Positions 9,630 to 41,148 are shown, counted from the stretch's first letter. The stretch is DNA of 64,000 bases from Myxococcales bacterium (GCA_023954815.1 JAGSHB010000003.1:8998-72997), one strand, 5' to 3'. Notes: a model not told the origin generated them from the sequence alone. Made by a program: numbers and translations.

Positions 9630-9734
9630 CTGAGGGACCGGAGTAGGGGGAAGATACTGGCTACCAGGGCGATCGCAGCCCCGATGGTGAGAAATACGAC
9701 CAGCGTGTCGCGATCGTACTGAAACGACACGCTG

Positions 9735-10250
9735 CTAACGGAACATCGAGCCGGCGGAGCTGCGACGTTCGAAGAGTCTGCCCGCTCTGTCGAGCAGGGC
9801 AAATTGCAGCGGCGCGGCGAGCATGGTGATGAGCGACAGGGGCAGCGCCATCCGCAAGGCTTGGGCATGGCTGCCGAATTCGCGGTGGAAAATCGTCTCG
9901 AACATCATGAACAGCCCAGTCGCAACGAGCGTCGCAATCGCTGCGGTCGCCATGAGGCTCACCGGCGAACGCAAATCGGTGTGTCGTGACGCCAACCGCA
10001 TGCCCAGAAAGACCAGTACGCCCACCTCAGCAAACACCCCGACCGGGGCCGCCAAACAGAAGCCGTCTTTCAGCAAACCGATGATAAATACGGTCAGAAT
10101 GCCGGGAAGTAGCCCACCGCGATGCGCTGCGAACATCGCCGTGATCACCAGTACGTCGGGCGCGAAGAGTTGGCTACTGAACGAACCCAGCAGCGGCGAT
10201 TCAAGGCCCAAGAGCAGCCAGGTGACGAGCAGCCATGCGACGTAATTCAT
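9735..10250 (-). CDS. mreD: Rod shape-determining protein MreD
   Basis: About 170-aa polytopic membrane protein sitting between mreC and mrdA. Confidence 0.75.
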   Translation of the reverse strand: MNYVAWLLVTWLLLGLESPLLGSFSSQLFAPDVLVITAMFAAHRGGLLPGILTVFIIGLLKDGFCLAAPVGVFAEVGVLVFLGMRLASRHTDLRSPVSLMATAAIATLVATGLFMMFETIFHREFGSHAQALRMALPLSLITMLAAPLQFALLDRAGRLFERRSSAGSMFR

Positions 10251-18995: not shown

Positions 18996-19001
18996 GACAG
19001 C

Positions 19002-19625
19002 CTACTGCACGAGCAGGGTGCTGCTGCGATCGATGGGTTTGCGATCGATCGCGGCGCGGACCAGCTCCCAAACGGCGGGGCGCTTGGCCACAAAGGTACC
19101 GTCAGCACGCTCGGAGCCTTGCAAGACGATGAGGCGCGACACGTCCGACTCTCCACCAGTCGCGGGTGCGGTCCCCACGGGTTTGCCCACCACGCGAATC
19201 ACATTCGAGCCACGGTGCAACGCACCGGTCAGGTCCACCGTAAAGGGGCCGGTGCTGAGCGCGATTTCCCGAAACTTCTTGTTGTTCACAAAGATCGTGA
19301 ACGTGAAGGAGACCTTCGGGTTGGGGCGGTACAGCAACACGTACCTCGACGTCGGCTTGGCCGCCTTGGCTTTCACGTTGCCGAAATCAGACGATCCGGT
19401 CACGCGAATCGGCTTGCCCGCCTTGTCCGTGATGACACGGTAGCCGGGGGAGATCACGTGCAGGTTGCCCAGCGCATCAAATTTGACGGAGCAATTTTGC
19501 AGGTTGACCCCTTTCAATCCGGTCGCTTTGACACCGTTGACGTAGACGTCGATGGCGTGGGCGTGGGATGTGGTCAGTGATGCTGCGGCGAGCGCGGCTG
19601 TGAACAATAGGCTTGAGAGTCGCAT
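19002..19625 (-). CDS. Secreted hypothetical protein
   Basis: Signal peptide MRLSSLLFTAALAAASLTTSHAHA. RBS GGAGG 7 nt upstream. Lies 6 nt downstream of the epmA-like stop. Confidence 0.55.
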   Translation of the reverse strand: MRLSSLLFTAALAAASLTTSHAHAIDVYVNGVKATGLKGVNLQNCSVKFDALGNLHVISPGYRVITDKAGKPIRVTGSSDFGNVKAKAAKPTSRYVLLYRPNPKVSFTFTIFVNNKKFREIALSTGPFTVDLTGALHRGSNVIRVVGKPVGTAPATGGESDVSRLIVLQGSERADGTFVAKRPAVWELVRAAIDRKPIDRSSTLLVQ

Positions 19626-19828
19626 GGGTCTGCCTCCAACTGCGATGCGCGACTTTGACGCACGGCTACTGGGCTGCAACGCACACCGGTGCCGTTACAT
19701 TCGCATGAGCGTGCCATGTCGTCGCCAGTGGGCCAGAAATCAGCCCAAAAACAGCCTGCACACTGATTCTCTGGGCGATCTAGCTTTGAAATGACGTCTG
19801 CTCGGAGTGGAGAACTGCGGCTGAGGGC

Positions 19829-20590
19829 TCAGGGCGCGTGGGGATCGCCGATGGGCGCACATTGCTCCTCGTGGATGGTGCACACCTTGGGCGTGCCCTG
19901 GGCGCTGTTGAACGCCTTGATGTAGCACTTCTTCTTGTCTTCGATCTCGTCGTTGACCACCCCCGACGGCGTCATTTCTTGAAAGCAACGCCAGCGGCAG
20001 CAGTCGAGCTTCTCTTTGCTTGTCTGCCAGAGTTGGCAGGTCTTAAGGAAGTTGCAGTACGCCTTACAGACCTGCTTGGCATTGGTGTACTTCGGGTCGG
20101 TGACCTTGCTCTCCCAATCACAGATGACCGGATCGATGACGACTTGGCCGTGGCTGTCCGGCGATTGGCACACTTTGGTCGGCAGGGCGGGATACAGATC
20201 CGTGTTCTTCCACGCTGGCTTGGTGCATTTTTGCCACTGTGACCAGTTGCTCTTGCAGGTGTCCGTGTTGTTGCAGATAGGCGCGCAGAAGGTCTTCAGC
20301 TCGCCTTTGAAGTCACTGGGTACCGTGACGCACAAGCCAGCGGTGGCGCCGAGATCAGCAGTGTCACAGTAGTCACCCGGGTTCGTACAGGCCTTGGTGC
20401 ACCAAGGCCGCGGCGCCCAATCGCCATCGGCACAAGCGAGTCCAGCAGCGCACTCCCCCTCTTCACAAGCCTGCCCAAAGCCGGGGAGTACCGGCGCTCG
20501 CGCACCTGCGTTTGCATCTCCCCCACCTTCACTGCCGCACGCGCTCAACAGGAGCGCTCCGACCAACAAGACTCGCGTTGGGTAGCTCAA
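19829..20590 (-). CDS. Cys-rich secreted lipoprotein (probable TTG start)
   Basis: Frame carries GGAGG, 5 nt, then TTG, followed by the lipobox LLVGALLLSAC. Mature region contains about 30 cysteines. The ORF track's upstream extension is antisense to the USP gene region. Confidence 0.5.
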   Translation of the reverse strand: MSYPTRVLLVGALLLSACGSEGGGDANAGARAPVLPGFGQACEEGECAAGLACADGDWAPRPWCTKACTNPGDYCDTADLGATAGLCVTVPSDFKGELKTFCAPICNNTDTCKSNWSQWQKCTKPAWKNTDLYPALPTKVCQSPDSHGQVVIDPVICDWESKVTDPKYTNAKQVCKAYCNFLKTCQLWQTSKEKLDCCRWRCFQEMTPSGVVNDEIEDKKKCYIKAFNSAQGTPKVCTIHEEQCAPIGDPHAP

Positions 20591-20815
20591 TATGACCTCC
20601 TGGCAGGTACGTGCACCCTCGTGGCGCGTCCGCCTCACCAGAGCCTGCCCGCTTCGCAGCTCCGCGTCGACCCGCATTGGCGGAGCCGGATGAGTGCGGA
20701 TCGGGCGATTTTTAGGGCCGAAAGCGCTCGTTTGACGGATCGCCCCTCGCCCGGTGGCAACGCCCCACAGCACCGTGCTAGCTTTCTGGCGCGCCACGTT
20801 TCCTCGGAGCTCCCC

Positions 20816-21727
20816 ATGTTTGATCGCATCCTCCTGCTCACCGACCTCGACGACAATCCAGAACTGACCGCTGGTCCGGTCGCGGCGCTGTCCGAAGTGT
20901 TCTCGTGCAAGGTCATTATTTTCCACGCACTGCGGGGTTCAAGCGACCTGTTCTACCTACAGGGAGACGCCGATCAGGTGCGCAAGTTGCTCGACAAGAA
21001 GGCCGAGGATGAGGCCCGACCCGCCCTGGAAAAGTTGGCAGACGAACTCGAAAGTCGCGGCGTCAACACCGGTATTGTGACGCAGGTTGGGTCGGCTTTT
21101 GATCTCGCCTTGCGCGCCGTAAAGGATCTCGACATCGATCTGGTGGTGATTCCGCAAGAGGGTTTCGCTGACTTCACCGACCGGGTCAGTGGCTCGACGA
21201 CTGCAAGGCTGATTCGCGAAAGCGCCGTACCTGTGCTGACGATCAACCACGCGTTCTTGGATCGCTCCGACAAATGGAAGGGGTTTCACCGCATTCTCTA
21301 CCCGACCTCGCTATCAGGCGGGAAGAGTCGTCGTCTGAGTGATGCGGAGGATTTCGCAGCGGAGATCGGCGGCACGTTGGAGCTCGTCCACGTCATCGAT
21401 CCCATTCATGAGCAGGTCCTCGAGACGCCCGAGGGCGAGGTCATTCTGCCCAAGGACATCAACTATCGCGTTCGGAGTCGCCTTGAGGAGCGCCTGAGCG
21501 CCTTGGCGCACTCGGTGACTCAGGTGCCATGCATGTGGCGCCTGCTCGAAGATACCAAGCCCGGCTCAGGAGTGATGGCCTATGCCGATCGCAGCAACGC
21601 CGACCTGATCGTGGTGCCGCCGCTTGCGACCGGTGACACGCGCCACACCCTCCTCGGGAGCGTCGCCGAGCACGTGATCAAGCACGCCCGTGTGCCGGTC
21701 ATGTCCCTGAAGCCCGAGAAGTCGTGA
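20816..21727 (+). CDS. Tandem universal stress protein (UspA) domain protein
   Basis: Two USP domains (MFDRILLLTD...VIPQEG...; ILYPTS...VVPPLATGDTRHTLLGSVAEHVIKHARVPVM). Confidence 0.8.
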   Translation: MFDRILLLTDLDDNPELTAGPVAALSEVFSCKVIIFHALRGSSDLFYLQGDADQVRKLLDKKAEDEARPALEKLADELESRGVNTGIVTQVGSAFDLALRAVKDLDIDLVVIPQEGFADFTDRVSGSTTARLIRESAVPVLTINHAFLDRSDKWKGFHRILYPTSLSGGKSRRLSDAEDFAAEIGGTLELVHVIDPIHEQVLETPEGEVILPKDINYRVRSRLEERLSALAHSVTQVPCMWRLLEDTKPGSGVMAYADRSNADLIVVPPLATGDTRHTLLGSVAEHVIKHARVPVMSLKPEKS

Positions 21728-23058
21728 CGTCCGAATCTTTCGCGCCGGAGCTCTTTGCGGCGACGGACGCCCCCCTCGCTGAGCGCATGCGTCCGCGCAC
21801 ATTGGACGAGGTCCTCGGTCAGTCGGCGTTGGCCGCTCCCGGAGGATTCCTAAATCGCGCGTTGGCCAGCGACCGGCTGCCGTCCATCATTTTGTGGGGA
21901 CCACCAGGCACAGGCAAGACCACCCTGGCGCGGCTACTTGCCCGCGGAAGAGCCCGTTTTGTGGGCTTATCGGCCGTTCTCAGCGGCGTCGCGCAAGTGC
22001 GCACGGTCGTGCAGGAAGCCCAGGCTGCCCGGCAGCGCGGTCACAAAACAGTGCTGTTTGTCGACGAGATCCACCGCTTCAATAAGGGCCAACAAGACGC
22101 GTTCTTGCCCCACGTGGAAGCAGGGACCATCACCCTTGTCGGCGCCACCACCGAGAATCCAGCCTTCAGCCTCAACAGCGCCCTCCTGAGCCGGTGTGCC
22201 GTTTTGGTTTTAGAGCCGCTCAGTGATGACCACCTCGTCGAACTCTTGAGCCGGGCGCTATCGGATCGTCGCGGATATGGCGGCACCGGCTTGCTCGCTG
22301 ATGATGATGCGCTGGGGCGCATCGCCCGCGAGGCCGATGGCGACGCCCGCCGCGCGCTGACACAGCTGGCCGCCATCGCCGATCCCCTTCTCGACGATGC
22401 GAACCAAGATCCGACCCTGACCCCGACCATCACGCTGGCACATCTCGATCACGTAGCGAGTCACGGCGGGCCTCGCTACGACCGCGGTGGCGACACCTAC
22501 TTTCAGTTGATGAGCGCGCTGATCAAATCCATGCGCGGCTCCGATCCTGATGCGGCTCTGTATTGGCTCGCTCGCATGCTCGATGCCGGCGAGGATGGTC
22601 GGGTGATCTCTCGGCGGTTGGTGGTCTTTGCCGCCGAGGATGTGGGCAACGCCGATCCGCGTGCGCTGCCCCTGAGCGTGGCCGCTGCGCAAGCCCATGA
22701 GCTTGTCGGTCTACCCGAGAGTCGCATCTCGATCGCCCAAGCCGTGACCTTTCTTGCGACGGCTCCAAAGAGCAACGCGAGCTACAAGGCCCTAGGGCAG
22801 GCCATTGAAGCCGTCAGGGCCCATGGGTCCCTCCCGGTGCCGCTACGGCTGCGAAACGCCAGCACAGCGCTCGCGCGGCAGTTGGGCCACGGAAAAGGCT
22901 ACCGCTATCCCCACAACGAGGGCGGGTTCATAGCTGAGAGCTACCTGCCGGATGCCCTCGAGGGGGCCCAGTTCTACAAGCCGACTCAAAATGGCTACGA
23001 GGCCCGCATCGCTGAGCGTTTGCGCACGTGGCGAGAGCTGCGAGAGACCGACGGGTAG
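21724..23058 (+). CDS. rarA: Replication-associated recombination protein A (RarA/MgsA AAA+ ATPase)
   Basis: Walker A GPPGTGKTT. Motifs LFVDEIHRFNK and TTENP. GTG start overlaps the USP stop (GTGA). Confidence 0.85.
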   Translation: MTSESFAPELFAATDAPLAERMRPRTLDEVLGQSALAAPGGFLNRALASDRLPSIILWGPPGTGKTTLARLLARGRARFVGLSAVLSGVAQVRTVVQEAQAARQRGHKTVLFVDEIHRFNKGQQDAFLPHVEAGTITLVGATTENPAFSLNSALLSRCAVLVLEPLSDDHLVELLSRALSDRRGYGGTGLLADDDALGRIAREADGDARRALTQLAAIADPLLDDANQDPTLTPTITLAHLDHVASHGGPRYDRGGDTYFQLMSALIKSMRGSDPDAALYWLARMLDAGEDGRVISRRLVVFAAEDVGNADPRALPLSVAAAQAHELVGLPESRISIAQAVTFLATAPKSNASYKALGQAIEAVRAHGSLPVPLRLRNASTALARQLGHGKGYRYPHNEGGFIAESYLPDALEGAQFYKPTQNGYEARIAERLRTWRELRETDG

Positions 23059-23234
23059 CAGCGGCTCACCTGCGGACACCGCGCGTCACAGTCTCACGCG
23101 TCGTGGTCAATCGCTGCACTCGCGTTGGTGGTTGGAATAAGGTCGCGGCGTCGCGCGCTTTGGGAAGTGCTTATTGTAAGGGCTTGTCTTGTCCTGGTTT
23201 TTCGGTCAATGGTGCGTCCCCTTGACCCCCTAGT

Positions 23235-23260
23235 GGGGCGCTCCTACGCTACGGCGCCCC
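23235..23260 (+). promoter_or_regulatory. GC-rich hairpin in the rarA/dsbA-fusion intergenic region (possible terminator or regulatory stem-loop)
   Basis: 7-bp stem ggggcgc / gcgcccc with a 12-nt loop. No immediate U-tract; a TTTTT run lies ~25 nt downstream. Confidence 0.3.
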
Positions 23261-23296
23261 ACGCGCTACAGCGTATGCAATTTTTGGAGTTCGTTC

Positions 23297-25333
23297 ATGG
23301 ATAGCTCGTTTTGCCGCCGGAATACTCGCGCGGCCATCGCCATCGCCTGCGCTGTCGCCATGCTGACGGTCGGCTGTGGTCCGAAAGAGACCGAGACCAC
23401 CGGCAAAGGCAAGGCCACCAAGGGCGCCAAGAGCGCGGGGTTGGACCGGGCCCAGCTCGGCGCAGAGAAGCCATCGGTCGATATCATCGCATTTGTTGGT
23501 TTCCAGTGTGCGCACTGCAAAAAGAGCGCGGATGCGCTGTTGCAGCTCGCCACGACCCACTCGAAGGACGTGCGCCTGCGCATCGTGAACCTGCCGCTCG
23601 ACGTGCACGCCGATAGCGTCGCCCTGGCCAAAGGGTTCGTGGCAGCCCGTATGCAGGGTAAGTGGCAGGCGTACTACAAGCACATCTTTAGCCTCCCGAA
23701 GGCCACGGCGGACGACGTCGTGAAATGGGCCGCTGGCGCCGGAATCGATGCAGCGAAGTTCAAGAAGGACTTGGCGAGCAAAGCCGTCGCGGACGAGGTC
23801 GGCGTCGACGCGGGCATCGCTGGTGCGCTGGGTGTCGCTGGCACGCCGAGCTACTTGGTCAACGGTGCACTGCTGCAGGGGGCACGCGCCGCCGAAGAGT
23901 GGAAGAGCATCATCGACGGTCAGAAGGCGCTCGCCGCCAAGAAGACCAAGGATGGCGTCAAAGCGGCTGACCTCATGCGGACGCTCGCCAAGGCCAACAG
24001 CCCCAAGCGCGCCCCGCACTACGCGCGCATCGTCCTGAAGGGCGAGCTACCGGCAGCGGCAACGGTTCCGGTGAAGACGAAGAAGCGCAAAAGTGGCGTG
24101 GTTGCGGCTAAATTGCTGCCAGCTGGCGGCAGCGGCGGCGGTACAGTTCAACTCGGCGGAGCTGCCGCGAAGGACACCGGCATCGATCGCAACACCGTAT
24201 GGCGCGTGATCGTTCGCCCGGACGATCCCGTTCGCGGCGCCAAGGATGCCCCCCTGACCGTCGTCGTGTTCAGCGACTACGAGTGCAAGTTCAGCAAGCA
24301 GCTCCAGCCTACGTTGAAGGCCCTTGAGGGCGAGTTTGGTAAGGATTTGCGCATCGTTCACAAGCACAACCCGCTGCCCTTCCATCAGCGCGCCATGGCC
24401 GCGGCTGAAGCGGCAGAGGCTGCTCGCGCACAGGGGCAGTTCTGGAAGATGCACGACGCGCTGTTCGCGGCCGCACCCGCGCTGCAGGACACGGACCTGA
24501 GCAAGCTCGCCGCCGACATCAAGTTGGACAAAGCTGGCTACGACAATGCGATGAGCGCGCACGGCGCCCAGCGTCGAGTTCGGTCTGACGTTGAGCAGGC
24601 CGCTGCCGTTGGTGCGCGGGGTACGCCTAACTTGTTCATCAACGGTATGAAGGTGGTGGGCGCCAAGACCAAGGCTGACTTGATGCCGCTCATGCGGAGC
24701 CAGCTTGCGGCCGCAAAGAAGATGATCGCTGGCGGCACCCCCGCCGCGACGGTCTACGACAAGATCGTGGGGCAGGGCCGCCTACTCAGCAGCCTATCGG
24801 CCAAGGCGGCGACCATCGCGACCCTCGGCGCCGCGACCCGTGGCCCCAAGGGCGCCGCGATTCACATCGTCGCGTTTGAGGATTTTCAGTGCCCCTTCTG
24901 TGCGCGCCTGGATCAGCACATCGCGGCTATGGAGCGCGAGTTTGACGGCCGTGTGAAGGTCACCTGGATGGACTTCCCGCTGAGCAAGATTCATCCGCAA
25001 GCGCAGATGGCGGCTGAGGCCGGCAAAGAGGCCTTGGCCCAGGGCAAGTTCTGGCAGTTCCACGCCGCAGTCATGGCTGATCAGCACGACCTGACGGAGC
25101 CCGGGTTGCTGATTCTCGCGAAGAAGGCCGGTGTCGACACCAAGAAGTTGCGCGCCGCATTGAAGAGCCACAAGTGGGCGGCGGACGTCGCCAAGGAGCG
25201 CGCGGAGGGGCAGAAGCTGGCACTGAAGGGCACGCCAAGCGTGTTCATCAATGGCTACGCGTTCACGCCGCAGCTCGGCTTCTCGGCCAATACGTTCCGT
25301 TCGGCGATTGTGCGCCTGCTCGGTGCGCGCTAG
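23297..25333 (+). CDS. Lipoprotein with three tandem DsbA-like thioredoxin domains
   Basis: Lipobox AIACAVAMLTVGCG. Motifs CAHC, CKFS (degenerate) and CPFC, each followed by a DsbA-like helical insert. Confidence 0.8.
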   Translation: MDSSFCRRNTRAAIAIACAVAMLTVGCGPKETETTGKGKATKGAKSAGLDRAQLGAEKPSVDIIAFVGFQCAHCKKSADALLQLATTHSKDVRLRIVNLPLDVHADSVALAKGFVAARMQGKWQAYYKHIFSLPKATADDVVKWAAGAGIDAAKFKKDLASKAVADEVGVDAGIAGALGVAGTPSYLVNGALLQGARAAEEWKSIIDGQKALAAKKTKDGVKAADLMRTLAKANSPKRAPHYARIVLKGELPAAATVPVKTKKRKSGVVAAKLLPAGGSGGGTVQLGGAAAKDTGIDRNTVWRVIVRPDDPVRGAKDAPLTVVVFSDYECKFSKQLQPTLKALEGEFGKDLRIVHKHNPLPFHQRAMAAAEAAEAARAQGQFWKMHDALFAAAPALQDTDLSKLAADIKLDKAGYDNAMSAHGAQRRVRSDVEQAAAVGARGTPNLFINGMKVVGAKTKADLMPLMRSQLAAAKKMIAGGTPAATVYDKIVGQGRLLSSLSAKAATIATLGAATRGPKGAAIHIVAFEDFQCPFCARLDQHIAAMEREFDGRVKVTWMDFPLSKIHPQAQMAAEAGKEALAQGKFWQFHAAVMADQHDLTEPGLLILAKKAGVDTKKLRAALKSHKWAADVAKERAEGQKLALKGTPSVFINGYAFTPQLGFSANTFRSAIVRLLGAR

Positions 25334-27161
25334 TACCGCGATTGTCTGGGCGGCGCTGGTCGCTCTGTCGGCGCCTGCGCATGCGGCGTCCGGTGGGCGC
25401 GTGCCCACGGTTCGCCTGTTCGTCGATCTGCAAGACGCCACCTCCCGCACAGCTTGGCTGCGGTATCGCGCAGCCGTGAAGGCTGCCGGCACGCCCGTTC
25501 GCATGGTCGCGCATCCTATGCCGCTCGGTCGCAACCCCCGTGCTCGATCCGCTGCTGCTGCGGCGTTGGCAGCTCGTCAGATGGGCCACGGCAACGCATT
25601 TGTCGACGCACTTTTGCAGCGAGATTCACTCACAGACGCCGATTTTCGGGCCGCTGCGCGCGGTAGTGGCTTGGCAGTTGCCGATTTTGACAAGCGCCGC
25701 TCCGCCCCAGCGACCGTCTCATCTGTGGAGCGAGAGCGTAGCGCAGCGATTGCGCTGGGGGTCCGGGCGACTCCTAGCGCGCTTCTCATGGGGCGTGGGG
25801 TCTCTGGTCTGCCGCCAACCGTGACACTACGCGCAGCTCTGGCCCATGCCTTGCGGCGCTGGCGCACCTGTAACAAAGCCGCCAACTCCGATTGCGAGGG
25901 CGCCAAGGTTGGCGCGGCGGGGTCTGCGTCCCGCGCGGCATTCGATGTGCTGCGCGGCCGTGTCTCCAAAAACAACAAAACTGCCGCCTCAACTGCCGGT
26001 TCGACGATCGCCCGTGTTGTGCCGGGGCGCTTGGGCGAGCGGTGGCGTGTTGCGCTACCGAAATCACCCTTGTCGCTGGGCGACAATGCCAACGTGACAG
26101 TGGTGTGGTACGTCGATCCGAGTCAGCCGCGCTGCTGCAGCGGCGGTCGGAGTCTGCTCGCCCGGGCTCAGGCAGATGAAGTTCGCCTCGTCGTCATTCC
26201 TGTCGCAAACGGTCCGGACTTCGCCCCGGCTTCGGCATTGCACGGGATGAAGACGACCGAAGAGCAGCGGGCTCATGTCGTACGTCAGCTGCTCAAGCAC
26301 GGCGGGGGCCCCCTCACAGCGTTGGCGAAGCTCCTTGGGCTCCGGGGACTCGCTAGGGCTGCGGCGGCCCCTCAGGCGGCTGTTGAACTCGCCGCTGCCG
26401 CGGCGCTCGCTGCCAAGGTCGCGGCTGCGCCTGGTTCGCTCTTTATCAACGGTCGCCGCTGGCTGGGGCCGGTCGGCGGACCGTCCTTTGCCGCCGCCAT
26501 CTCAGCCGCCCGCTCTGAGGCCCGCTCGCTCGCCGGTGTTTCGACAACGGCCCGCTACGCCCACCTTATCGCCCACGGGCGCGTGCGGAGCGCCGTCGAG
26601 GCTGACCTCGAACCGGCCGAAGAGCTGTCGGGGCTCGATGCGCTAGCGGACCTAGGCTCGACTGGCGCCGCGACTCCAAAGGCGGTCGATGCTTGGTTGT
26701 TCGTCGACTTTCGCCGCATGGGGTCACGCGCCGCGTTCTTCGCGCTGAAGTTTCTGCAGTCTCATGGTGCCCCACCGGTTCGCCTCCACCTCGCCAGTCT
26801 GACATCGACTCGGGAGCCTGGCGTCTCGCCGGCGGGGGCGGCCCTGCTCATCGCCGCCCGCCACGGCAAGGCCTTGGCTTGCGCCACGCGGCTCTTCGGC
26901 GCATCGGACCCAGACGATTGGCGTCAATTACGCCGTATTTTCAAGAAGATTGGGCTAAAACCGCGGCTCCTCGCCAAGCAGTCGCGCAGTCCGGGCGTGC
27001 GCGCGGCCATGGCGAAGATTGCGCGCCTCAAGCGCGAGCACGACATGCTGCAAGCGCCGGTGCTGTATCTCGGATCCAGACGATACGTCGGCCCAATCGA
27101 CGAAAATCGCATCGCCGCCGCAGTGAAGTTCATTGCGCGTCACAAGGAGGCGCCCCAGTGA
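25323..27161 (+). CDS. Secreted DsbA/thioredoxin-fold-like protein; active-site CxxC not evident
   Basis: GTG start at 25323, 11 nt before the upstream stop. Signal peptide RASTAIVWAALVALSAPAHA. Ala/Arg-rich with DsbA-like spacing. Confidence 0.55.
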   Translation: MRASTAIVWAALVALSAPAHAASGGRVPTVRLFVDLQDATSRTAWLRYRAAVKAAGTPVRMVAHPMPLGRNPRARSAAAAALAARQMGHGNAFVDALLQRDSLTDADFRAAARGSGLAVADFDKRRSAPATVSSVERERSAAIALGVRATPSALLMGRGVSGLPPTVTLRAALAHALRRWRTCNKAANSDCEGAKVGAAGSASRAAFDVLRGRVSKNNKTAASTAGSTIARVVPGRLGERWRVALPKSPLSLGDNANVTVVWYVDPSQPRCCSGGRSLLARAQADEVRLVVIPVANGPDFAPASALHGMKTTEEQRAHVVRQLLKHGGGPLTALAKLLGLRGLARAAAAPQAAVELAAAAALAAKVAAAPGSLFINGRRWLGPVGGPSFAAAISAARSEARSLAGVSTTARYAHLIAHGRVRSAVEADLEPAEELSGLDALADLGSTGAATPKAVDAWLFVDFRRMGSRAAFFALKFLQSHGAPPVRLHLASLTSTREPGVSPAGAALLIAARHGKALACATRLFGASDPDDWRQLRRIFKKIGLKPRLLAKQSRSPGVRAAMAKIARLKREHDMLQAPVLYLGSRRYVGPIDENRIAAAVKFIARHKEAPQ

Positions 27162-27571
27162 AACGGCAGCTCTCCTGGACCCTGCGCGGGACGTGGTTGC
27201 CCTATGGTACGCCAGATGTGGTGCGGCCCGCCGAGCTGGCGGTTCACGCGCACAAGGGTGACGACGGACTCGACCTCCGCGGGCATTTGACGCTCACCGG
27301 GTGGCTGGACAGAGCACCTGTCGTGGGTACGCTCTCCTGGATAGCGGGCCTACGTCCATCGGTCCGCTATCGCCTCACCGTTGCTGTGGACCCAGAGCTG
27401 ACCCTAGATTTCACGCTGAGGCCGCGCCTGTCTCAGCCGATCGATAGCGTCACACGTTTGTGGACCGAAGTGATCAGCGCACGGGGCACCGAGGGGCTGC
27501 TCCATCTGCGCTTCGATATCAGACGTGACCTGGCCCCTCACCTTCTCTCCCTCTTACGCCCATCGTTGTGA
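27158..27571 (+). CDS. Small hypothetical protein (~137 aa), translationally coupled
   Basis: Strong RBS AAGGAGG 7 nt before a GTG that overlaps the upstream TGA (GTGA). No recognizable domain. Confidence 0.5.
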   Translation: MKRQLSWTLRGTWLPYGTPDVVRPAELAVHAHKGDDGLDLRGHLTLTGWLDRAPVVGTLSWIAGLRPSVRYRLTVAVDPELTLDFTLRPRLSQPIDSVTRLWTEVISARGTEGLLHLRFDIRRDLAPHLLSLLRPSL

Positions 27572-27591
27572 GTGATCGACCGGAGCCCTTG

Positions 27592-28827
27592 ATGACGCCG
27601 CACCTTTCTCGCCGTGCTTTGGATGCCCCAGCCTCCCCCATTCGTCGCCTCATGCCGTTCGCCGATGGGGCGCGCGACCGGGGGCTGCATGTGCACCACC
27701 TCAACATTGGCCAGCCCGATATTGCGACCTCGAGCACCATGCGTGCCGCCTACCAGGCCTTTTCGGATGAGGTCGTTGCTTACAGTCCGTCGCAGGGCAC
27801 CCTCAGCCTGCGCAACGCCCTGGCTGACTACTGCCGGAGCAATCAGCTGCATGGCGCGCAGAAACCGGTGGACCCCGACCAGATTCTCGTGACGGTCGGC
27901 GGCAGCGAGGCGCTGCTCTTTACCATTGCTGCAGCTTGCGATTTCGGCGATAGCATCGTCGTAGCCGAGCCGTACTACACGAACTACAAAGGCTTTGCGC
28001 ATCTATTGGGCTGTGATGTCGTGCCGCTGACGACTGGCCCAGAAGATGGTTTTGATGTCGATCCAGCCCGGCTGTCAGCCCGGCTCGCGGCCCACCCTCG
28101 GGCACGGGCGTTCATTGTTCCATCACCCGGCAACCCCACCGGCGCCGTCTTGACCACAGAACGCTTGTCCCAAATCGCCGCGGTTTGCCGCGAGCATGGC
28201 GTCTTTTTCGTCGTCGATGAGGTCTATCGCGAGTTCGTCTATGACGACGAGTTGGCTGGGGGAGTCGCCCCTTCAGCCCTGGCCCTGCCGGACATGGGCG
28301 AGCACGTTGTCGTCATCGATTCCGTCTCGAAACGCTACTCTGCGTGCGGTTCCCGGGTGGGGTGGCTCATCACGCGCAACGCGTCGCTGTATGCTGCCTG
28401 CCTGAAGTTTGCCCAAACTCGACTGTCACCGCCCACAGTGGATCAATTTGCCGCAGAGGCGGCGGTGCGGACCCCCATGGGCGAGATGCGCGCCAACATC
28501 GCCGCCTACCAAGCGAGGCGTGATGTTGTGGTCAGTGGACTCAACGCCATTGAGGGTGTCTCTTGCCCAAACCCAGCCGGCGCTTTCTATCTCGTTGCCG
28601 ACCTGCCGATCACCGATTCCAACGCTTTTTGTCGCTTCTTGTTGGAAGAATTCGAGCTGGACGGTGAGACGGTGATGCTCGCTCCAGCCGGCGGTTTTTA
28701 TGCCACGCCAGGCGCCGGAATGAACCAGGTGAGATTGGCCTATGTGCTTGATATTCCGGCTTTGAAGCGCAGTTTGCGCATCATATCCGAAGGCTTGTTG
28801 GCCTTTCAGCGGCGCGGAAACATATAG
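27592..28827 (+). CDS. PLP-dependent aminotransferase, class I/II (AspC family)
   Basis: Motif SVSKRYSACGSRVGW (PLP-binding Lys). GGAG 6 nt upstream of the ATG. An alternative GTG start at 27568 overlaps the upstream stop. Confidence 0.8.
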   Translation: MTPHLSRRALDAPASPIRRLMPFADGARDRGLHVHHLNIGQPDIATSSTMRAAYQAFSDEVVAYSPSQGTLSLRNALADYCRSNQLHGAQKPVDPDQILVTVGGSEALLFTIAAACDFGDSIVVAEPYYTNYKGFAHLLGCDVVPLTTGPEDGFDVDPARLSARLAAHPRARAFIVPSPGNPTGAVLTTERLSQIAAVCREHGVFFVVDEVYREFVYDDELAGGVAPSALALPDMGEHVVVIDSVSKRYSACGSRVGWLITRNASLYAACLKFAQTRLSPPTVDQFAAEAAVRTPMGEMRANIAAYQARRDVVVSGLNAIEGVSCPNPAGAFYLVADLPITDSNAFCRFLLEEFELDGETVMLAPAGGFYATPGAGMNQVRLAYVLDIPALKRSLRIISEGLLAFQRRGNI

Positions 28828-28845
28828 GGGCCGGGGCCTGTGCGG

Positions 28846-29511
28846 CTACGCTGGATCGCTCGCGTCGTCACCTTTGCGACGGCCTTCCAGCCAGTGCTTG
28901 AGCAGGAAGACGCCGCCAGCGACCAGGATGAGCAGCAGGATGCCGTGCTCTGCCTGCCTGGCCTTGTCGATCACCATGTCGAATTGCGCGCCCCAATACC
29001 ACGCGGCGCCCACCAGCGCCGGAACGCTGATCAGCATCGCCAATCCGTCGTAGCGTAGAAAACGGCCGAAGGAGATGCCCAACGTGCCGCTGGTGAAGAA
29101 TACGACCGAGCGTAGTCCGGGCATGAAGCGCGCACTGAACAACACCTTGGGGCCGTTGCGTTGCAGAAACCCCCGCGCCTTCTCCAATCTGCCGCCGCCA
29201 AACATCGAGCGAAACGGCCAAACCCCAATGAGTTTGTCGCCAAATTTTCGCCCCAGTATGAACATGAACGAATCGCCGATCATCACGCCCAGGATGCCCA
29301 CAATGATGGCGGTACCGATCCAGGCATGTGGCCGCGGAGAGCCGTCCGGCATGACGTGGTACGTCATGTAGCCCATCAGCAGCAAAGTGATGTCTTCGGG
29401 CACCGGCAAGCCCAATCCACAGAGCAACAAGACGGTGAACCCGATCGCATAGATCGTCGCACCGTCGAGGCTCATGAGGTAGGTGATGACGTCGCCGATC
29501 CAGGCGTCCAT
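28846..29511 (-). CDS. DedA/SNARE-associated family membrane protein
   Basis: DedA signature region (GLPVPEDITLL..., GRKFGDKL). Start MDAWIGDV. Confidence 0.75.
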   Translation of the reverse strand: MDAWIGDVITYLMSLDGATIYAIGFTVLLLCGLGLPVPEDITLLLMGYMTYHVMPDGSPRPHAWIGTAIIVGILGVMIGDSFMFILGRKFGDKLIGVWPFRSMFGGGRLEKARGFLQRNGPKVLFSARFMPGLRSVVFFTSGTLGISFGRFLRYDGLAMLISVPALVGAAWYWGAQFDMVIDKARQAEHGILLLILVAGGVFLLKHWLEGRRKGDDASDPA

Positions 29512-29537
29512 GTCGGGCTCCGATAGGGGGGGGCTCT

Positions 29538-30278
29538 CTAACCGCGGTGTCGTTCTTTGATGCGCTTGCTGGCATCGCGCGCCCAACGCCGTACCTGTGG
29601 CGGCTGCGACAAGTTAGTCCACCCGCCGACCTTGGCCAGGAACTTAGCGTCATCCACGCCGCCGATCTCGCCGATGAGGTCTAGCGCGGAGTCGAGCATA
29701 TGCGCGGTCGGATGATCGAATAGGTGGCGCAGGCGCGGCAGAATCGCGGCCTTGTCATGGTGGAGCAGCGCGTCTCCCGCGGCGCAGCGAACATTGCTAT
29801 CCGGGTCGAGCAGCGCGCCGAACAGGGCGTCTTCCGCCTCCTCCTCCCGGAACTGACCCAAGGCTCTAGCCGCACGCCAGCGCACGTTCCACTCACCGTC
29901 ATCGGCGGATGCGATGAGAATATCGAGGGCCTCTTCACTGTCAGGCCAACTCTCCAACCCACCCACTGCGGATGCCCGCACTTCAACAATGGGGTCGCCA
30001 GCGCGCTTGAGCAACTTGACCAGCGCCGCATCACCCAACCACACCGCCAGCCCATCTACCGCCAACTCCCGCGTGGTTGGGTCTTCGCTGTCGGCATGTT
30101 TGAGCAGCATCTGCTCGGCGTCATCCGCGGCCAACTCGTCGCGTAACTCCTGCCAATTGTCCCGCCGTTTGTTGTCCTCGGCGTTGGCGCCCATCAGACG
30201 AGCCAACCGGCGAAGCGCCCGAACGATGACGGCTGGATTGTCCGAGCGGAGACCGCGAGCGATAGAACGGGTGGACAT
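29538..30278 (-). CDS. HEAT/PBS-lyase-like repeat protein
   Basis: Repeated motifs of the form VRxxAxxALG / ARALGQF. Confidence 0.55.
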   Translation of the reverse strand: MSTRSIARGLRSDNPAVIVRALRRLARLMGANAEDNKRRDNWQELRDELAADDAEQMLLKHADSEDPTTRELAVDGLAVWLGDAALVKLLKRAGDPIVEVRASAVGGLESWPDSEEALDILIASADDGEWNVRWRAARALGQFREEEAEDALFGALLDPDSNVRCAAGDALLHHDKAAILPRLRHLFDHPTAHMLDSALDLIGEIGGVDDAKFLAKVGGWTNLSQPPQVRRWARDASKRIKERHRG

Positions 30279-30322
30279 AAACTCTCCCAATTCGGAGTGG
30301 GTGACGAGATGTGGCTCGGAGT

Positions 30323-30802
30323 CTAGACGTCGGTGTCGAGTCCATGGGGCGACTTGTGCACGTGAACCACCCGCCAAGCCTCATCGTGCTGCTCAAGCAC
30401 TACAGACTCGTCAGAGTGCGCCTGCACAACCATGCCGTGCTCCAGCGCCTGCACACGCAAAGTGTAGCTGGCGACCGCGACGCGGTCGTACAGCCGCAGC
30501 AAGAGGTCCTCAAGTGTCCACGAGACGTCCGCAGGCGGACTCTGCTCCCGAATCCAGTCTTCGTGCAGATTGCGACCCTCGATGCGGCCATCCTGCGTGT
30601 ACCACTCGTAAGTCGTCATCGTCATTGATGTTGTCGCGAGAAACACCTCAAGGTCGTGATTGAGGTTCGCCGCCACCCAGGCTTCCAGGGTGGCGAGGAC
30701 CGCAGTACTCTCGTCGTCGTCGAGTGAACTCGCTAAGATCGCCGGGTCGACGGTAGGGATTGGAAAGTCGGTCAAGGGGACAACTCCATCGCCGGCATTC
30801 AC
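30323..30802 (-). CDS. NTF2/SnoaL-like fold protein (DUF4440-like)
   Basis: GTG start. Motif VLATLEAWVAANLNHDLEVFLA typical of SnoaL-like N-termini. Confidence 0.45.
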   Translation of the reverse strand: MNAGDGVVPLTDFPIPTVDPAILASSLDDDESTAVLATLEAWVAANLNHDLEVFLATTSMTMTTYEWYTQDGRIEGRNLHEDWIREQSPPADVSWTLEDLLLRLYDRVAVASYTLRVQALEHGMVVQAHSDESVVLEQHDEAWRVVHVHKSPHGLDTDV

Positions 30803-30832
30803 CCGGTGGACACCGAGTGTGGGGATCGCCGA

Positions 30833-32623
30833 TCAAGGGATCGCGGGCCGTGTCGATCGAGCGCAACACTCGCGAAAGTCACAAAGGACTCGTTTCTTGA
30901 GGAGTTTCGTAGGATCTTCAGGCACTTGAAATCTGACGTCCTTGAACTCCGGGCACTCGTCGCACACGGAGGTCGGCAGACAGCGCATGGTATAGCTGCG
31001 ACCGGTCTCAAGCGGTAGTCGTTTTACGCCGTTCTTTGTGATCAGTTTGCCATCGAGGTACAGGGTCGCGCTTGGCGGCAGGCTCGCGAGCGTAAAGACA
31101 ACCAACCCCTTGGGTTCCGGCGTGGCTACCTGCTTCGAGCCGCCAACGCTGGTTGGTGCCGGGCGCCGGTTGGGTCGCGGGTGTCGTCGCGCACCACGGA
31201 CTTTCTTCTTAACGACTGGCAGCGCAGCCCGAGAATCCGGGGTTTTAGCGGCTACATCGACCGGTTCAGCTCGCTTGATCGGGTCGGGAGCCGTCGGCGC
31301 GGCAGCAGCTGTACCAGCGGTTCGCGTAGGGGTGGGCGAAGCGGCTGCGACCTTTTTCGGTGCGGCCTTTGCCTTGGGGATCATCGCCAACTCGTCAGGC
31401 GCGCTGGGCAAGGTCGCAGCCTTGATCGCATCTGTGGGCAGTGGCGCAGTGGCTTCCGTTCGAGGTGGAGGCGGTGTTGATCCGACGCCGAGCCAGACAC
31501 CGGCGACAACAGCTGCCACGCTGCTCAATATCGCCACATGTTTGAGGCGTTTGTGACGGCGGGAGCGCGAGGTCAAATCGCTCAGCCCACGCCGCGGGTC
31601 GAGTGCGTCTGGGTCGATCGCCAGCGCACGGTTGTACGCACTGATCGCCAGCGCCAACGAGCCTTCGCGGGCCTGCCGACGCCCTTCAGCGCACAGAGAC
31701 CTCACAAGCAACGGACGCCATTCCAGCTGAAACTGCTCGGGGGCTGTCAGCAACCGCGGAACCAGGGTCGCTACGTCGTTCATGTCGAACTGGTGGAGGT
31801 ACGTCTCCAATGTGTCCTGCACCGCCGCCATCGAAGAAAAGCGATCCTTCGGCTCGCGGGCCATACACGTATCGATAATCTCTTCGAAGCGCCGGCCGAT
31901 AGCTCCGCTGTAGCGACTTGGCGGCTCGTACTCGCACTCCAAGATCAGGCGAAATAGGGCGTGCGGGTTACTGGCCATAAACGGCAATTCACCAGTGACC
32001 AATTTGTATAGCAGTGTGCCAAAGGCGAAGATATCGACCCGGAAATCAGCCCCGCGGCCCTCGATCTGTTCTGGCGCCATGTGCGCCGGCGACCCCAAAA
32101 TCGTGCCTGTCGCTGTCATCTGCTCCAGATCCACTGCCGTCGCGATGCCAAAATCCATCAGCTTGATGGTGCCGTCTCGGGAGATCATCAGGTTGTCGGG
32201 CTTGATGTCGCGATGAACCAGCCCGTGGCTGTGGGCGTGCTTCAAGGCGCCGGCAATCGCGTGGGCAATCAGCGCCGCCGCTTGCGGCAGAAATGGGCCG
32301 TGAGCGTCACAAAATTCGGTCAGTGTGATGCCGTTGACGAACTCGGTGACCAGGTATGCGTCTGCGTCGTTGCCGCCCGAGTACGTATAGACGTCGACGA
32401 TGTTCGGGTGGTGAAGTCGGGCGATTGACTTCGCCTCACGACTAAATCGGGCCCGGGCGTCGGCGCGGCTGGCCAAGTGCGGATGCAGCACTTTGATCGC
32501 AACGTCACGATCGAGCTCCGTGTCGCGACCCAAGTAGACTGTGGCCATACCGCCACTACCCACCTGTTCCACGACCAGGAACTTATCTCCGAAGACCCGG
32601 CTGTCGACGCCCTGATCGTTCAC
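30833..32623 (-). CDS. Serine/threonine protein kinase with TM segment and C-terminal extracytoplasmic region
   Basis: Motifs GSGGMATVY, AIK, HRDIKPDNL, DFGIA and GSPAHMAPE. TM segment at about aa 375-395. Confidence 0.9.
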   Translation of the reverse strand: MNDQGVDSRVFGDKFLVVEQVGSGGMATVYLGRDTELDRDVAIKVLHPHLASRADARARFSREAKSIARLHHPNIVDVYTYSGGNDADAYLVTEFVNGITLTEFCDAHGPFLPQAAALIAHAIAGALKHAHSHGLVHRDIKPDNLMISRDGTIKLMDFGIATAVDLEQMTATGTILGSPAHMAPEQIEGRGADFRVDIFAFGTLLYKLVTGELPFMASNPHALFRLILECEYEPPSRYSGAIGRRFEEIIDTCMAREPKDRFSSMAAVQDTLETYLHQFDMNDVATLVPRLLTAPEQFQLEWRPLLVRSLCAEGRRQAREGSLALAISAYNRALAIDPDALDPRRGLSDLTSRSRRHKRLKHVAILSSVAAVVAGVWLGVGSTPPPPRTEATAPLPTDAIKAATLPSAPDELAMIPKAKAAPKKVAAASPTPTRTAGTAAAAPTAPDPIKRAEPVDVAAKTPDSRAALPVVKKKVRGARRHPRPNRRPAPTSVGGSKQVATPEPKGLVVFTLASLPPSATLYLDGKLITKNGVKRLPLETGRSYTMRCLPTSVCDECPEFKDVRFQVPEDPTKLLKKRVLCDFRECCARSTRPAIP

Positions 32624-35156: not shown

Positions 35157-36869
35157 CTAGGGAGCCTTGCAGACGTCGTTGGCAGTCGAAGGCGTACCCT
35201 TCATCGTGCTGGTGCCGTAACCCTTCGTCGAGGCGCACCAGTTCTTGCCGTCAGCCGCGCCCGCTGCGGTGAGCTTGTCGCTCGACAGCTGCCAGGCCAC
35301 ACCCAACTTCACCCACGACTTTTCGTACTTCACCGTCGCGACCTTCACAGCGCCTGCCATGATGGCGAGGTCACCGCCGGAGTTCGACATGTAGATTTTA
35401 GTCTGCAGGGCGTCGAACGTCGCGCCATGGTTCTTCGTCTTGTCGTTGGTGCGACCGATGGAGAAGTAGGCGCCAGCAGCCAGCTTGATGCCTTTGCCGT
35501 CGTTGTCGAGCTTGGCGTTGTTCTTGCCCTTGTACACCAACGATACGCCTTCAATGTTCAGCTCTTTGCCCGACGCGTTGTAGATCTCGACCCACTCGCC
35601 GTTGTCAGTACCACCCTGAGTGCGCGGCATGATCTCAGTGAAGATCAGGTCGCCCTCTTTCAGTTTTGGGGCTTCCTTTTTGCAGTCTTTCGAGCAGCCG
35701 TCGTCGCTGTCCTTGTTGCCGTCGTCGCACTCTTCGTCGCCGGTCTTCTTGCCGTCGCCGCAGACAGGCGGCGGGCAGGCGTCGCCGATGCCGTCGTTGT
35801 TACCGTCCTTCTGATCGGCGTTAGGCACTTTGGGGCAGTTGTCGCAGGCATTGCCCACGCCGTCCTTGTCCTCGTCGTACTGGGTGCTGTTGGCGTCCTT
35901 GGTGCAGTTGTCAGACATGTCCACCGTGCCGTCCTTGTCCATGTCAGGCTGGCACTTGGGGTTGGCCTTGCCGGGCGAGCCAGCGTTGCTCTTGCCGTAC
36001 AAGTCCTGCGCGACACACCAGTTGTTGCCGTTGTCGTTGATCTCCGTGCTGGTGGCGGCGCTACCGAGCTGGGCGGCCTTGCCACTGACGATGTAGGGCC
36101 AGCCCTTGTCACCACCGGAAGCGTAGTTCACCTCGTCGATGACCGTGTTGGTGTCGGCGCGGAGGACGATTTTGCCCGAGCTGTTGCCCAAGGCGATCTT
36201 CGAACCATAGGCGTAGGTGACGCTGAGTCCGTCGTTCTTGGTCTTGTCGTCTTTCTTGGCGAAAACCGCGTATTCCCCGGCTTTCAGCACCGTTGGGCCG
36301 GAGCCGACGACGGTGTGCGAGTTCTTGTACTGGTCCTCGATGATCAGACCGTTGAGGTTGATGTCCATGGTCGTGGTGTTGACCACTTCGAACCACTCGG
36401 CGTCCGAGTCGCTGACCACGGCTGGGTTCGCCATGAGCTCAGTGATGAGCAGTTCGCCCTTCTTGAGCGCAGTGGCCGGGGTCAGGTTGTCGCCACCCGC
36501 GTCGGTCGCACCTGCATCGGATGAGCTTGCGTCGGTCGCGGCAGCATCTCCACCGGTCGCAGCGTCCCCACCGGTCGCGGCATCGCCGGTCGTGCCCGCG
36601 TCAGTCGCCGTTCCACCGTCGGACTCTGTGCCTGCGTCGGTCACGGTGCCCGCGTCGGACGCCGTTCCTGCGTCGGACTCCGTTCCTGCGTCGGTCTCCG
36701 TGCCGGCGTCCGTACCGCCGCTATCTGCCGTCGTGCCGTCAGCAGCTGTGCCGTCTTCGGTCGTCGAGCCGCTGTCCGTAGCAGGGGTCTTGTTGTCGTC
36801 ATCACTGCCGCACGCAACCGCGAACGAAGCGAGGCCGATAAGGGCCATGCGAATCCAGATGTTGTTCAT
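35157..36869 (-). CDS. Secreted lipoprotein with two lamin-tail domains (LTD), thrombospondin type-3 Ca-binding repeats and a CGDG...EECDDGN Cys repeat
   Basis: Lipobox LASFAVACG. LTD-like blocks LLITELMANP...EWFEVVN and LIFTEIMPRTQGG...EWVEIYN. TSP3-like DKDGVGNACDNCP and DQKDGNNDGIGDAC. Repeat CGDGKKTGDEECDDGN. Confidence 0.7.
   Translation of the reverse strand: MNNIWIRMALIGLASFAVACGSDDDNKTPATDSGSTTEDGTAADGTTADSGGTDAGTETDAGTESDAGTASDAGTVTDAGTESDGGTATDAGTTGDAATGGDAATGGDAAATDASSSDAGATDAGGDNLTPATALKKGELLITELMANPAVVSDSDAEWFEVVNTTTMDINLNGLIIEDQYKNSHTVVGSGPTVLKAGEYAVFAKKDDKTKNDGLSVTYAYGSKIALGNSSGKIVLRADTNTVIDEVNYASGGDKGWPYIVSGKAAQLGSAATSTEINDNGNNWCVAQDLYGKSNAGSPGKANPKCQPDMDKDGTVDMSDNCTKDANSTQYDEDKDGVGNACDNCPKVPNADQKDGNNDGIGDACPPPVCGDGKKTGDEECDDGNKDSDDGCSKDCKKEAPKLKEGDLIFTEIMPRTQGGTDNGEWVEIYNASGKELNIEGVSLVYKGKNNAKLDNDGKGIKLAAGAYFSIGRTNDKTKNHGATFDALQTKIYMSNSGGDLAIMAGAVKVATVKYEKSWVKLGVAWQLSSDKLTAAGAADGKNWCASTKGYGTSTMKGTPSTANDVCKAP
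36509..36740 (-). repeat. Degenerate ~18-bp in-frame tandem repeat encoding (T/S)DAGT(E/A/V) units in the LTD protein linker
   Basis: Translates to TDAGTETDAGTESDAGTASDAGTVTDAGTESDGGTATDAGTTGDAATGGDAATGG. Confidence 0.6.
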
Positions 36870-41035: not shown

Positions 41036-41148
41036 CGATGCTGGCACGTACCCCTGCGATTCTGCCACCCTGACAGGACCCGGCACGCTGCGCTATCCTG
41101 CAGCGGTTCGCCCCGTTGCAGACGTCCTGCCCCCAAGGAGCTCCGCCC

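Follow-up and report, generated by a model that had tools for sequence, protein, structure and literature searches.

Conserved pairing of a triple-DsbA lipoprotein with a triple DsbA-fold protein lacking redox cysteines at a myxobacterial locus

We analyzed a stretch of 64,000 nucleotides from a Myxococcales bacterium (GCA_023954815.1 JAGSHB010000003.1:8998-72997; GC content 62-65 %), referred to below as the window, and focused on two adjacent open reading frames (ORFs). ORF1 (23297-25333) encodes a 678-residue lipoprotein with three tandem DsbA/Thioredoxin_4 domains, and ORF2 (25323-27161) encodes a 612-residue secreted protein composed of three tandem DsbA-fold domains without any redox Cys. 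Both genes lie on the plus strand, as do all features given below unless the minus strand is indicated. Two aspects of this locus are new. The first is the conserved pairing of a triple-DsbA lipoprotein with a triple-DsbA protein whose active sites are fully devoid of cysteine. The second, as read from the aligned orthologs, is a recurrent and domain-independent toggling of the ORF1 active sites between CxxC and CxxS/T, with strict retention of the nucleophilic Cys. On balance we favor the reading that the two proteins form a clade-specific disulfide-folding pair of the cell envelope, in which ORF1 would be a PDI-like oxidase/isomerase and ORF2 its non-catalytic, substrate-binding DsbA-fold partner.

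The three domains of ORF1 were recognized by two Pfam families, PF13462 (Thioredoxin_4, E=5e-53, 180 bits) and PF01323 (DSBA, E=2e-44, 152 bits), in three stretches bounded approximately by residues 50-235, 295-490 and 500-678. Pairwise identity among the domains is 27-33 %. Relatives of known structure retrieved by phmmer (6e-17 to 3e-8) comprise the actinobacterial DsbA 4pwo, 3gyk, the ScsC structures 4gxz, 6nen and 4xvw, and BdbD. The Pfam stretches and the DsbA-like structures agree with the original prediction, made from the sequence alone, that ORF1 carries three genuine DsbA-type thioredoxin folds on a lipoprotein. A CxxC motif is present in domain 1 (CAHC, residues 71-74, 23507-23518) and in domain 3 (CPFC, residues 532-535, 24890-24901), with the cis-Pro loops VAGTPS and KGTPSV kept, but not in domain 2, which has the monothiol site CKFS (residues 330-333, 24284-24295) and retains both the nucleophilic Cys and the cis-Pro loop ARGTPN. 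The signal peptide (23297-23377) ends with the lipobox-like LTVG-C27, and these two elements predict that ORF1 is exported to an oxidizing compartment. By inspection, essentially all 37 ORF1 orthologs have a Cys that closes the hydrophobic segment at the N-terminus and precedes G/S/N and Lys-rich residues; 24 of the 37 match a strict lipobox regular expression. ORF1 is 100 % identical to an NCBI entry named 'thioredoxin domain-containing protein' from a Myxococcales metagenome-assembled genome (MAG), and its score against the NCBIfam model NF041057 (Rcas_1661 thioredoxin-like (seleno)lipoprotein) was 135.5 bits, below the cutoff of 190.

The active sites were compared in an alignment of the 37 ORF1 orthologs, which comprise 111 domains, and changes were counted by parsimony on a neighbor-joining tree. 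Of the domains, 110 have the nucleophilic N-terminal Cys and all 111 the GTP cis-Pro motif, whereas the resolving Cys is kept in 69 and is otherwise replaced by Ser or Thr. The resolving position changed at least 14 times (at least 6 in domain 1, at least 2 in domain 2 and at least 6 in domain 3), against a single change for the three nucleophile positions together. If C stands for CxxC and S for CxxS/T in domains 1, 2 and 3, the state C-C-C was found in 9 orthologs, C-S-C, which is that of the ORF1 of the window, in 8, S-C-S in 8, C-C-S in 6, and S-S-C and C-S-S in 2 each. One ortholog (P0006) is S-S-S and has no CxxC at all, and in another one the domain 1 site is lost (none-C-C). At the position of CKFS, other orthologs have CPHC, CPFC or CPYC. 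The domain 2 site, which had been described as degenerate, is instead a monothiol with intact nucleophile and cis-Pro loop, and represents one state of a recurrent toggle. CxxS sites that occur in nature, as in yeast Eug1, have no oxidizing capacity but are suited to shuffling (PMC2195995). Selection appears to preserve the mixed-disulfide chemistry, and the oxidase-competent dithiol would be dispensable domain by domain.

These counts bear on an alternative in which ORF1 is a general DsbA oxidase re-oxidized by VKOR/DsbB, its extra domains decaying neutrally, and ORF2 is a dying, functionless duplicate. We regard it as unlikely. In its favor, the DsbA family consists primarily of oxidases, and at least one CxxC domain is left in 36 of the 37 orthologs. 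Neutral decay should, however, strike the nucleophile, the cis-Pro loop and the resolving Cys alike; it is disfavored because the losses of the two Cys are so unequal. The existence of P0006 also argues against a mere oxidase. The fate of ORF2 under this alternative is considered together with the properties of that protein.

ORF2 starts with a cleavable-looking signal peptide (...APAHA|AS), which is also seen in its homologs. It has five Cys, none of them within a CxxC motif, as the original prediction had noticed in calling it a CxxC-less, DsbA-like relative of ORF1. The relation holds, and it had been understated, since ORF2 is a full triple DsbA-fold protein. A family profile of seven members was assembled from a word-index search, which gave three ORF2 and three ORF3 relatives, and from syntenic loci. 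Using hhalign, this profile matched the ORF1 domain profiles at 99.3, 98.0 and 96.2 % over residues 22-200, 235-410 and 440-612 (approximate bounds). It also matched the DsbA-like structure 3gyk at 3.6e-14, and domain 1 of ORF2 scored 35 bits against PF01323 (cutoff 25.6). A low-confidence AlphaFold2 model, built from a four-sequence alignment and used solely to check the secondary-structure pattern and the fold class, predicts the order beta-alpha-beta, helical insert, beta-beta-alpha three times over. The top 50 matches of this model in the Protein Data Bank, as given by Foldseek, all have the DsbA fold and are mostly DsbA/ScsC/BdbD oxidoreductases.

At the active-site positions, ORF2 has D-A-T-S in domain 1, no motif in domain 2 and R-M-G-S in domain 3. 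The positions aligned with CxxC in the seven homologs show D-x-x-S/T, nothing recognizable, and R-x-x-S, respectively. The Pro at each cis-Pro position (P151, P370 and P579) is invariant in the seven proteins. Because the DsbA fold is kept while the redox Cys are absent from all seven homologs, we consider ORF2 a pseudo-enzyme and not an oxidoreductase. According to the alignment, two of its Cys form a pair after domain 1 (C183...C191, 25869-25895). C191 is invariant, and all seven homologs also have the first Cys, its position being shifted in one; the pair is probably a structural disulfide.

The ratio of nonsynonymous to synonymous substitution rates (dN/dS) of ORF2 is 0.29 against its closest ortholog, indicative of purifying selection; past this closest pair the ratio is uninformative, with dS saturated at around 1-1.7. 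Identity to three relatives is 51, 41 and 40 % for ORF2, versus 72, 66 and 55 % for ORF1. The faster divergence of ORF2 would be in line with a dying duplicate. Such a gene is not expected to keep its full length, its signal peptide and an unchanging Pro at every cis-Pro position across lineages at 32-51 % identity, nor to show the purifying selection measured in the closest pair. An origin of ORF2 by whole-gene duplication of ORF1 could not be shown: all ORF2 domains matched best domain 2 or domain 1 of ORF1, out of domain order. The NCBI gene call for ORF2 (P0121, 586 residues) begins 26 codons late, omitting 25323-25400 of the window and dropping the signal peptide; the longer, exported form is backed by the homologs. 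The ORF2 ortholog of lineage L003 (12008-13987) differs from the other homologs by additional Cys clusters: PCCHGG close to its N-terminus, and CPVCDC in the linker that follows domain 1.

The genomic context of ORF1 orthologs was read in at least eight distinct lineages. ORF1 and ORF2 are adjacent in all lineages examined, down to 46 % ORF1 identity, and in the window, L002, L003 and L005 the ORF2 start either abuts the stop codon of ORF1 or overlaps it. The invariant core consists of ORF1, ORF2 and an aminotransferase gene, the latter being always located directly 3′ of ORF2 or of a small gene, ORF3, in the relatives. In every related locus this core meets, in convergent orientation, the genes for a VTT/DedA protein, a HEAT-repeat protein and a Ser/Thr kinase. 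The conservation on which the original prediction depended is thus seen as synteny in at least eight diverged lineages. Two contigs with the Myxococcota-type cluster (L009 and L010) are labeled 'uncultured Enterobacteriaceae bacterium', which is probably a mislabeled bin.

Multi-domain DsbA fusions had been thought uncommon, and this view did not hold. At least 371 relatives of ORF1 are multi-DsbA proteins with three or four domains, and such an architecture was already noted in 2009 (PMC2757866); it is known and common in Myxococcota. The relatives comprise the orthologs of around 670 residues (46-73 % identity), other three-domain forms of around 660 residues, and four-domain forms of around 870 residues from Polyangia and Bradymonadia MAGs. 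The other three-domain and the four-domain forms have the same repeated Thioredoxin_4/DSBA architecture and are 30-35 % identical to ORF1, but they carry CxxC in every domain. No Cys-less partner was found next to them in the two contexts examined, L015 (four-domain) and L016 (other three-domain). In the sample examined, the pairing with a Cys-less partner is specific to the clade of ORF1 orthologs. The literature searched contained nothing on myxobacterial fused triple DsbA proteins or on Cys-less, non-catalytic DsbA-fold partners.

In the folding-pair reading, ORF1 would be a lipid-anchored chain facing the periplasm and bearing three DsbA-type catalytic domains. The dithiol sites CAHC and CPFC could carry and donate a disulfide, and the monothiol CKFS would be restricted to shuffling/isomerization, through attack on substrate disulfides and the resulting mixed disulfides. 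The covalent fusion of the three domains may supply the multivalency that ScsC, BcfH and alpha-DsbA2 obtain by oligomerizing and PDI by its a and a' domains. ORF2 would then assist without any catalysis of its own, by binding substrates or as a holdase, much like the b/b' domains of PDI or the TRXL domains of UGGT. A substrate-binding role is the most likely one for ORF2 because the protein is predicted to be exported to the compartment of ORF1 and has kept both the fold and the Pro at the cis-Pro positions.

This arrangement resembles several known systems without being identical to any of them. The ORF1 domains share with the DsbA-like Thioredoxin_4 oxidoreductases (BdbD, actinobacterial DsbA/TsdA, Silicibacter 3gyk) the DsbA fold, the helical insert, the active site at the start of helix 1, the cis-Pro loop and the export. 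The characterized members are, however, single-domain proteins, whereas the single lipoprotein chain of ORF1 bears three domains, one of them with a natural CxxS. Trimerization of DsbA-like domains confers isomerase activity on ScsC (Proteus, Caulobacter), BcfH and the Wolbachia alpha-DsbA2 (PMC8900818), and there too three catalytic domains, homologous to those of ORF1, are held together. These proteins trimerize by an N-terminal helix, while the domains of ORF1 are covalently fused, diverged, lipid-anchored and found outside any scs operon. No N-terminal trimerization helix of the ScsC type was found in ORF1, whose domain 1 starts at about residue 50, directly after the lipobox and a Lys/Gly-rich linker, and no scs genes occur near the cluster in the window or in the syntenic loci.

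The eukaryotic PDI family, including Eug1 and ERp44 with their CxxS sites, and the b/b' domains, likewise combines catalytic and non-catalytic thioredoxin-fold modules. The modules of ORF1 and ORF2 are instead of the DsbA type and are distributed over two polypeptides. PDI-type domains were not detected in either protein (PF00085, 22.3 bits, below the cutoff of 23.5; no match to PF13848), and the resemblance would be one of functional analogy, not of family-level homology. Four tandem non-catalytic DsbA-like domains, TRXL1-4, are used by UGGT for structural purposes or for the recognition of misfolded proteins (PMC7687155). Like ORF2 they are DsbA-fold domains in tandem without redox Cys, but UGGT is eukaryotic, its domains are fused to a glucosyltransferase and rearranged in topology, and no sequence relation to ORF2 was detected.

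Several points weigh against the folding pair. The isomerase activity, the cooperation of ORF1 with ORF2 and the nature of the substrates are what we infer from the features described above. A periplasmic monothiol shufflase requires a reduced thiolate or a partner, and genes for DsbB, VKOR or DsbD are absent from the 64-kb window. The low-confidence ORF2 model reached a predicted local distance difference test (pLDDT) score of 51, and the faster divergence of ORF2 would also be compatible with a weakly constrained duplicate. Finally, the tight coupling of ORF2 to genes for cytoplasmic proteins finds no explanation in the pair model. A broader proposal is possible though rather doubtful: the two genes could encode a bacterial PDI analogue made of two polypeptides and entirely of DsbA-fold modules, with a lipid-anchored catalytic chain whose sites can alternate between dithiol (oxidase) and monothiol (pure shufflase) chemistry and a Cys-less partner for substrate binding, in which the CxxC/CxxS-T switching would be an adaptive tuning of oxidation and isomerization to a very Cys-rich secretome, partly independent of recycling by DsbB/VKOR.

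The original prediction had placed ORF1 and ORF2 in an operon with a small ORF, followed by an aminotransferase gene. ORF1 to ORF4 are all present at the stated coordinates, and the 11-nucleotide overlap, the GTGA coupling, the AAGGAGG ribosome binding site and the downstream aminotransferase were all found in the sequence. ORF2 starts at GTG 25323, the overlap being with the 3′ end of ORF1. ORF3 (27158-27571) encodes a protein of 137 residues without a signal peptide; its start codon, GTG 27158, overlaps the ORF2 stop as GTGA, and the Shine-Dalgarno sequence AAGGAGG (27144-27150) lies 7 nucleotides 5′ of this GTG. ORF4 (27592-28827) encodes a pyridoxal phosphate-dependent class I/II aminotransferase (PF00155, 2e-53) and matched the NCBIfam model PRK07568 with 477.3 bits, passing the curated cutoff of 389. 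The longest frame of ORF4 begins at GTG 27568 and is also GTGA-coupled; the start at ATG 27592 is more likely, judging from its N-terminus MTPHLSRR, which resembles MTPQLSRR of an ortholog. Since each of the four has homologs and their arrangement is syntenic in at least eight diverged lineages, they are genuine genes and not chance ORFs. A scan of 19000-31000 with Rfam revealed no RNA family. The scan for promoters and terminators gave counts no higher than in shuffled sequence and did not fix the operon boundaries; its sole signal was a weak terminator-like hairpin in the spacer between RarA and ORF1.

The frame of ORF3 is open in diverged lineages, with the motifs W-T-L-R-G-T-W in the N-terminal and L-R-F-D-x-R-R-D-L-A in the C-terminal part. 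The dN/dS of this small ORF, 0.29 against its closest ortholog, that of L001, indicates coding constraint. An exhaustive profile search retrieved 53 representatives, almost all of 135-190 residues, and a signal peptide is lacking in all listed family members but one. AlphaFold2 predicts an eight-stranded up-and-down beta-barrel followed by a C-terminal helix (pLDDT 81, predicted template modeling score 0.77). Foldseek gave no significant match for this model, no Pfam or NCBIfam model matched ORF3 or 20 remote relatives, and comparison with avidin/calycin-like eight-stranded barrels linked it specifically to no described family, either by structure or by sequence. The ORF3 family is undescribed. 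An eight-stranded barrel of the outer membrane was ruled out by the missing signal peptides, both in the protein of the window and in the listed members save one. In another protein (P0129, 2221 residues), 32 separate stretches matched positions 7-52 of the ORF3 profile, which suggests a repeat of a similar beta-hairpin unit or a compositional artifact. ORF3 is absent from around half of the lineages: from L003/L011, where a non-coding gap of 170 bp is found, and from L009, L013 and L014/L017. In L014/L017, ORF2 directly overlaps the start of the aminotransferase gene. Being cytoplasmic and facultative, ORF3 is therefore unlikely to be part of a periplasmic redox function. The four genes do not behave as one functional operon, given that ORF3 has no signal peptide and is lost in several lineages and that the aminotransferase bears no sign of export. 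ORF3 and the aminotransferase gene share a tight, co-directional gene string with ORF1 and ORF2, and probably stand outside the redox function.

These results bear on the proposal that the four genes are a module devoted to the oxidative folding of Cys-rich exported proteins from the same neighborhood. Such proteins are indeed encoded in the window. A lipoprotein gene on the minus strand (19829-20590), probably starting at TTG 20590 behind CCAGGAGG, specifies a mature protein of 236 residues without a Pfam match; it has 23 Cys in its mature part, not 30 as had been counted. An LTD/TSP3 protein is encoded at 35157-36869, on the minus strand. At 41116-46806, a putative LTD/CTDC lipoprotein of 1896 residues (lipobox LSACG) contains Dicty_CTDC repeats, two LTD domains and 179 Cys (9.4 %), in keeping with the more than 150 Cys announced for this giant protein. 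Orthologs of the smaller lipoprotein, with 23-26 Cys, are syntenic in L001, L003, L005 and L007, and an LTD or CTDC gene lies within around 7 kb of the cluster in L001, L013, L014/L017 and the P0029 contig. Besides the window, one other lineage was seen to have the CTDC giant, and in the P0029 contig the gene next to the HEAT gene, on its 3′ side, encodes a similar CTDC/LTD protein.

The co-occurrence is nevertheless partial. The Cys-rich lipoprotein travels with the cluster in the four lineages just named, but is missing from the cluster flanks of L009, L013 and L014/L017. No LTD/CTDC gene is found at the locus in L005/L006/L010, L007 and the P0033 contig, where SecA comes immediately after the kinase. 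Besides, the neighboring genes encode RodA, PBP2, MreC, two isocitrate/isopropylmalate dehydrogenases, a class II tRNA synthetase, Usp, RarA, SecA and the pol III delta' subunit. Because the whole region is a conserved syntenic block of housekeeping genes, the adjacency of Cys-rich genes to the cluster carries little information. Together with ORF3 and an aminotransferase devoid of export signals, this makes a module of four genes dedicated to these neighbors quite improbable. Of the module that had been proposed, a role of ORF1 and ORF2 in oxidative folding or isomerization is the part that finds support, as their most reasonable function, and the dedication to the Cys-rich neighbors is the part that does not, the LTD/CTDC genes being present in some lineages only. 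It is plausible that the neighboring Cys-rich proteins are substrates, the case for dedication is weak, and the 23-Cys lipoprotein is a candidate substrate only.

Three further observations concern the flanks of the cluster. In the window, the genes of the VTT/DedA membrane protein, the HEAT-repeat protein and the Ser/Thr kinase form a block at 28846-32623 on the minus strand. A small CaMKII_AD/SnoaL-like protein is encoded between the HEAT gene and the kinase in some loci only. In L007, a gene for a 547-residue protein with weak Pfam matches to Cu2_monooxygenase (PHM/DBH-like) replaces RarA directly 5′ of the triple-DsbA gene (8241-9884).

Two explanations remain that assign other roles to these proteins. 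ORF2 might use its DsbA scaffold to act as an adaptor or regulator, the part that YjbH plays for Spx, or it might be a structural protein of the envelope unrelated to catalysis by ORF1. DsbA folds are known to have taken on functions other than redox catalysis, redox Cys are lacking in ORF2, and YjbH and HCCA isomerase are among the Foldseek matches. The strict adjacency to ORF1 in all lineages, often with overlapping start and stop, and the predicted export to the same compartment make such an independent role very unlikely. A function of the pair in defense against copper, other metals or redox stress in the manner of ScsC, instead of in general folding, is the least probable of all: the ORF1 domains do match ScsC structures (4gxz at 1.5e-10, 6nen, 6mhh and 4xvw), ScsC proteins bind Cu(I) at CxxC (PMC8900818) and the Cu2_monooxygenase-like gene of L007 lies directly 5′, but the matches to actinobacterial DsbA and 3gyk are stronger, CxxS/T sites would be poor Cu(I) binders, and neither scsA, scsB and scsD nor copper-resistance genes were found in the window or the syntenic loci.

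The finding would be an ordinary one if the pair were merely a redundant oxidase with a decaying duplicate. To our knowledge, the bacterial disulfide isomerases obtain their multivalency from dimers or trimers of single-domain proteins. If the folding-pair reading is right, ORF1 and ORF2 would reproduce, in a natural bacterial system, the logic of the a and b domains of PDI, and may be of practical value as oxidative-folding helpers for the production of Cys-rich proteins. The toggling of the resolving Cys over the 37 orthologs would then offer a ready-made evolutionary experiment on the share that each chemistry takes in the folding of proteins with tens to hundreds of Cys.

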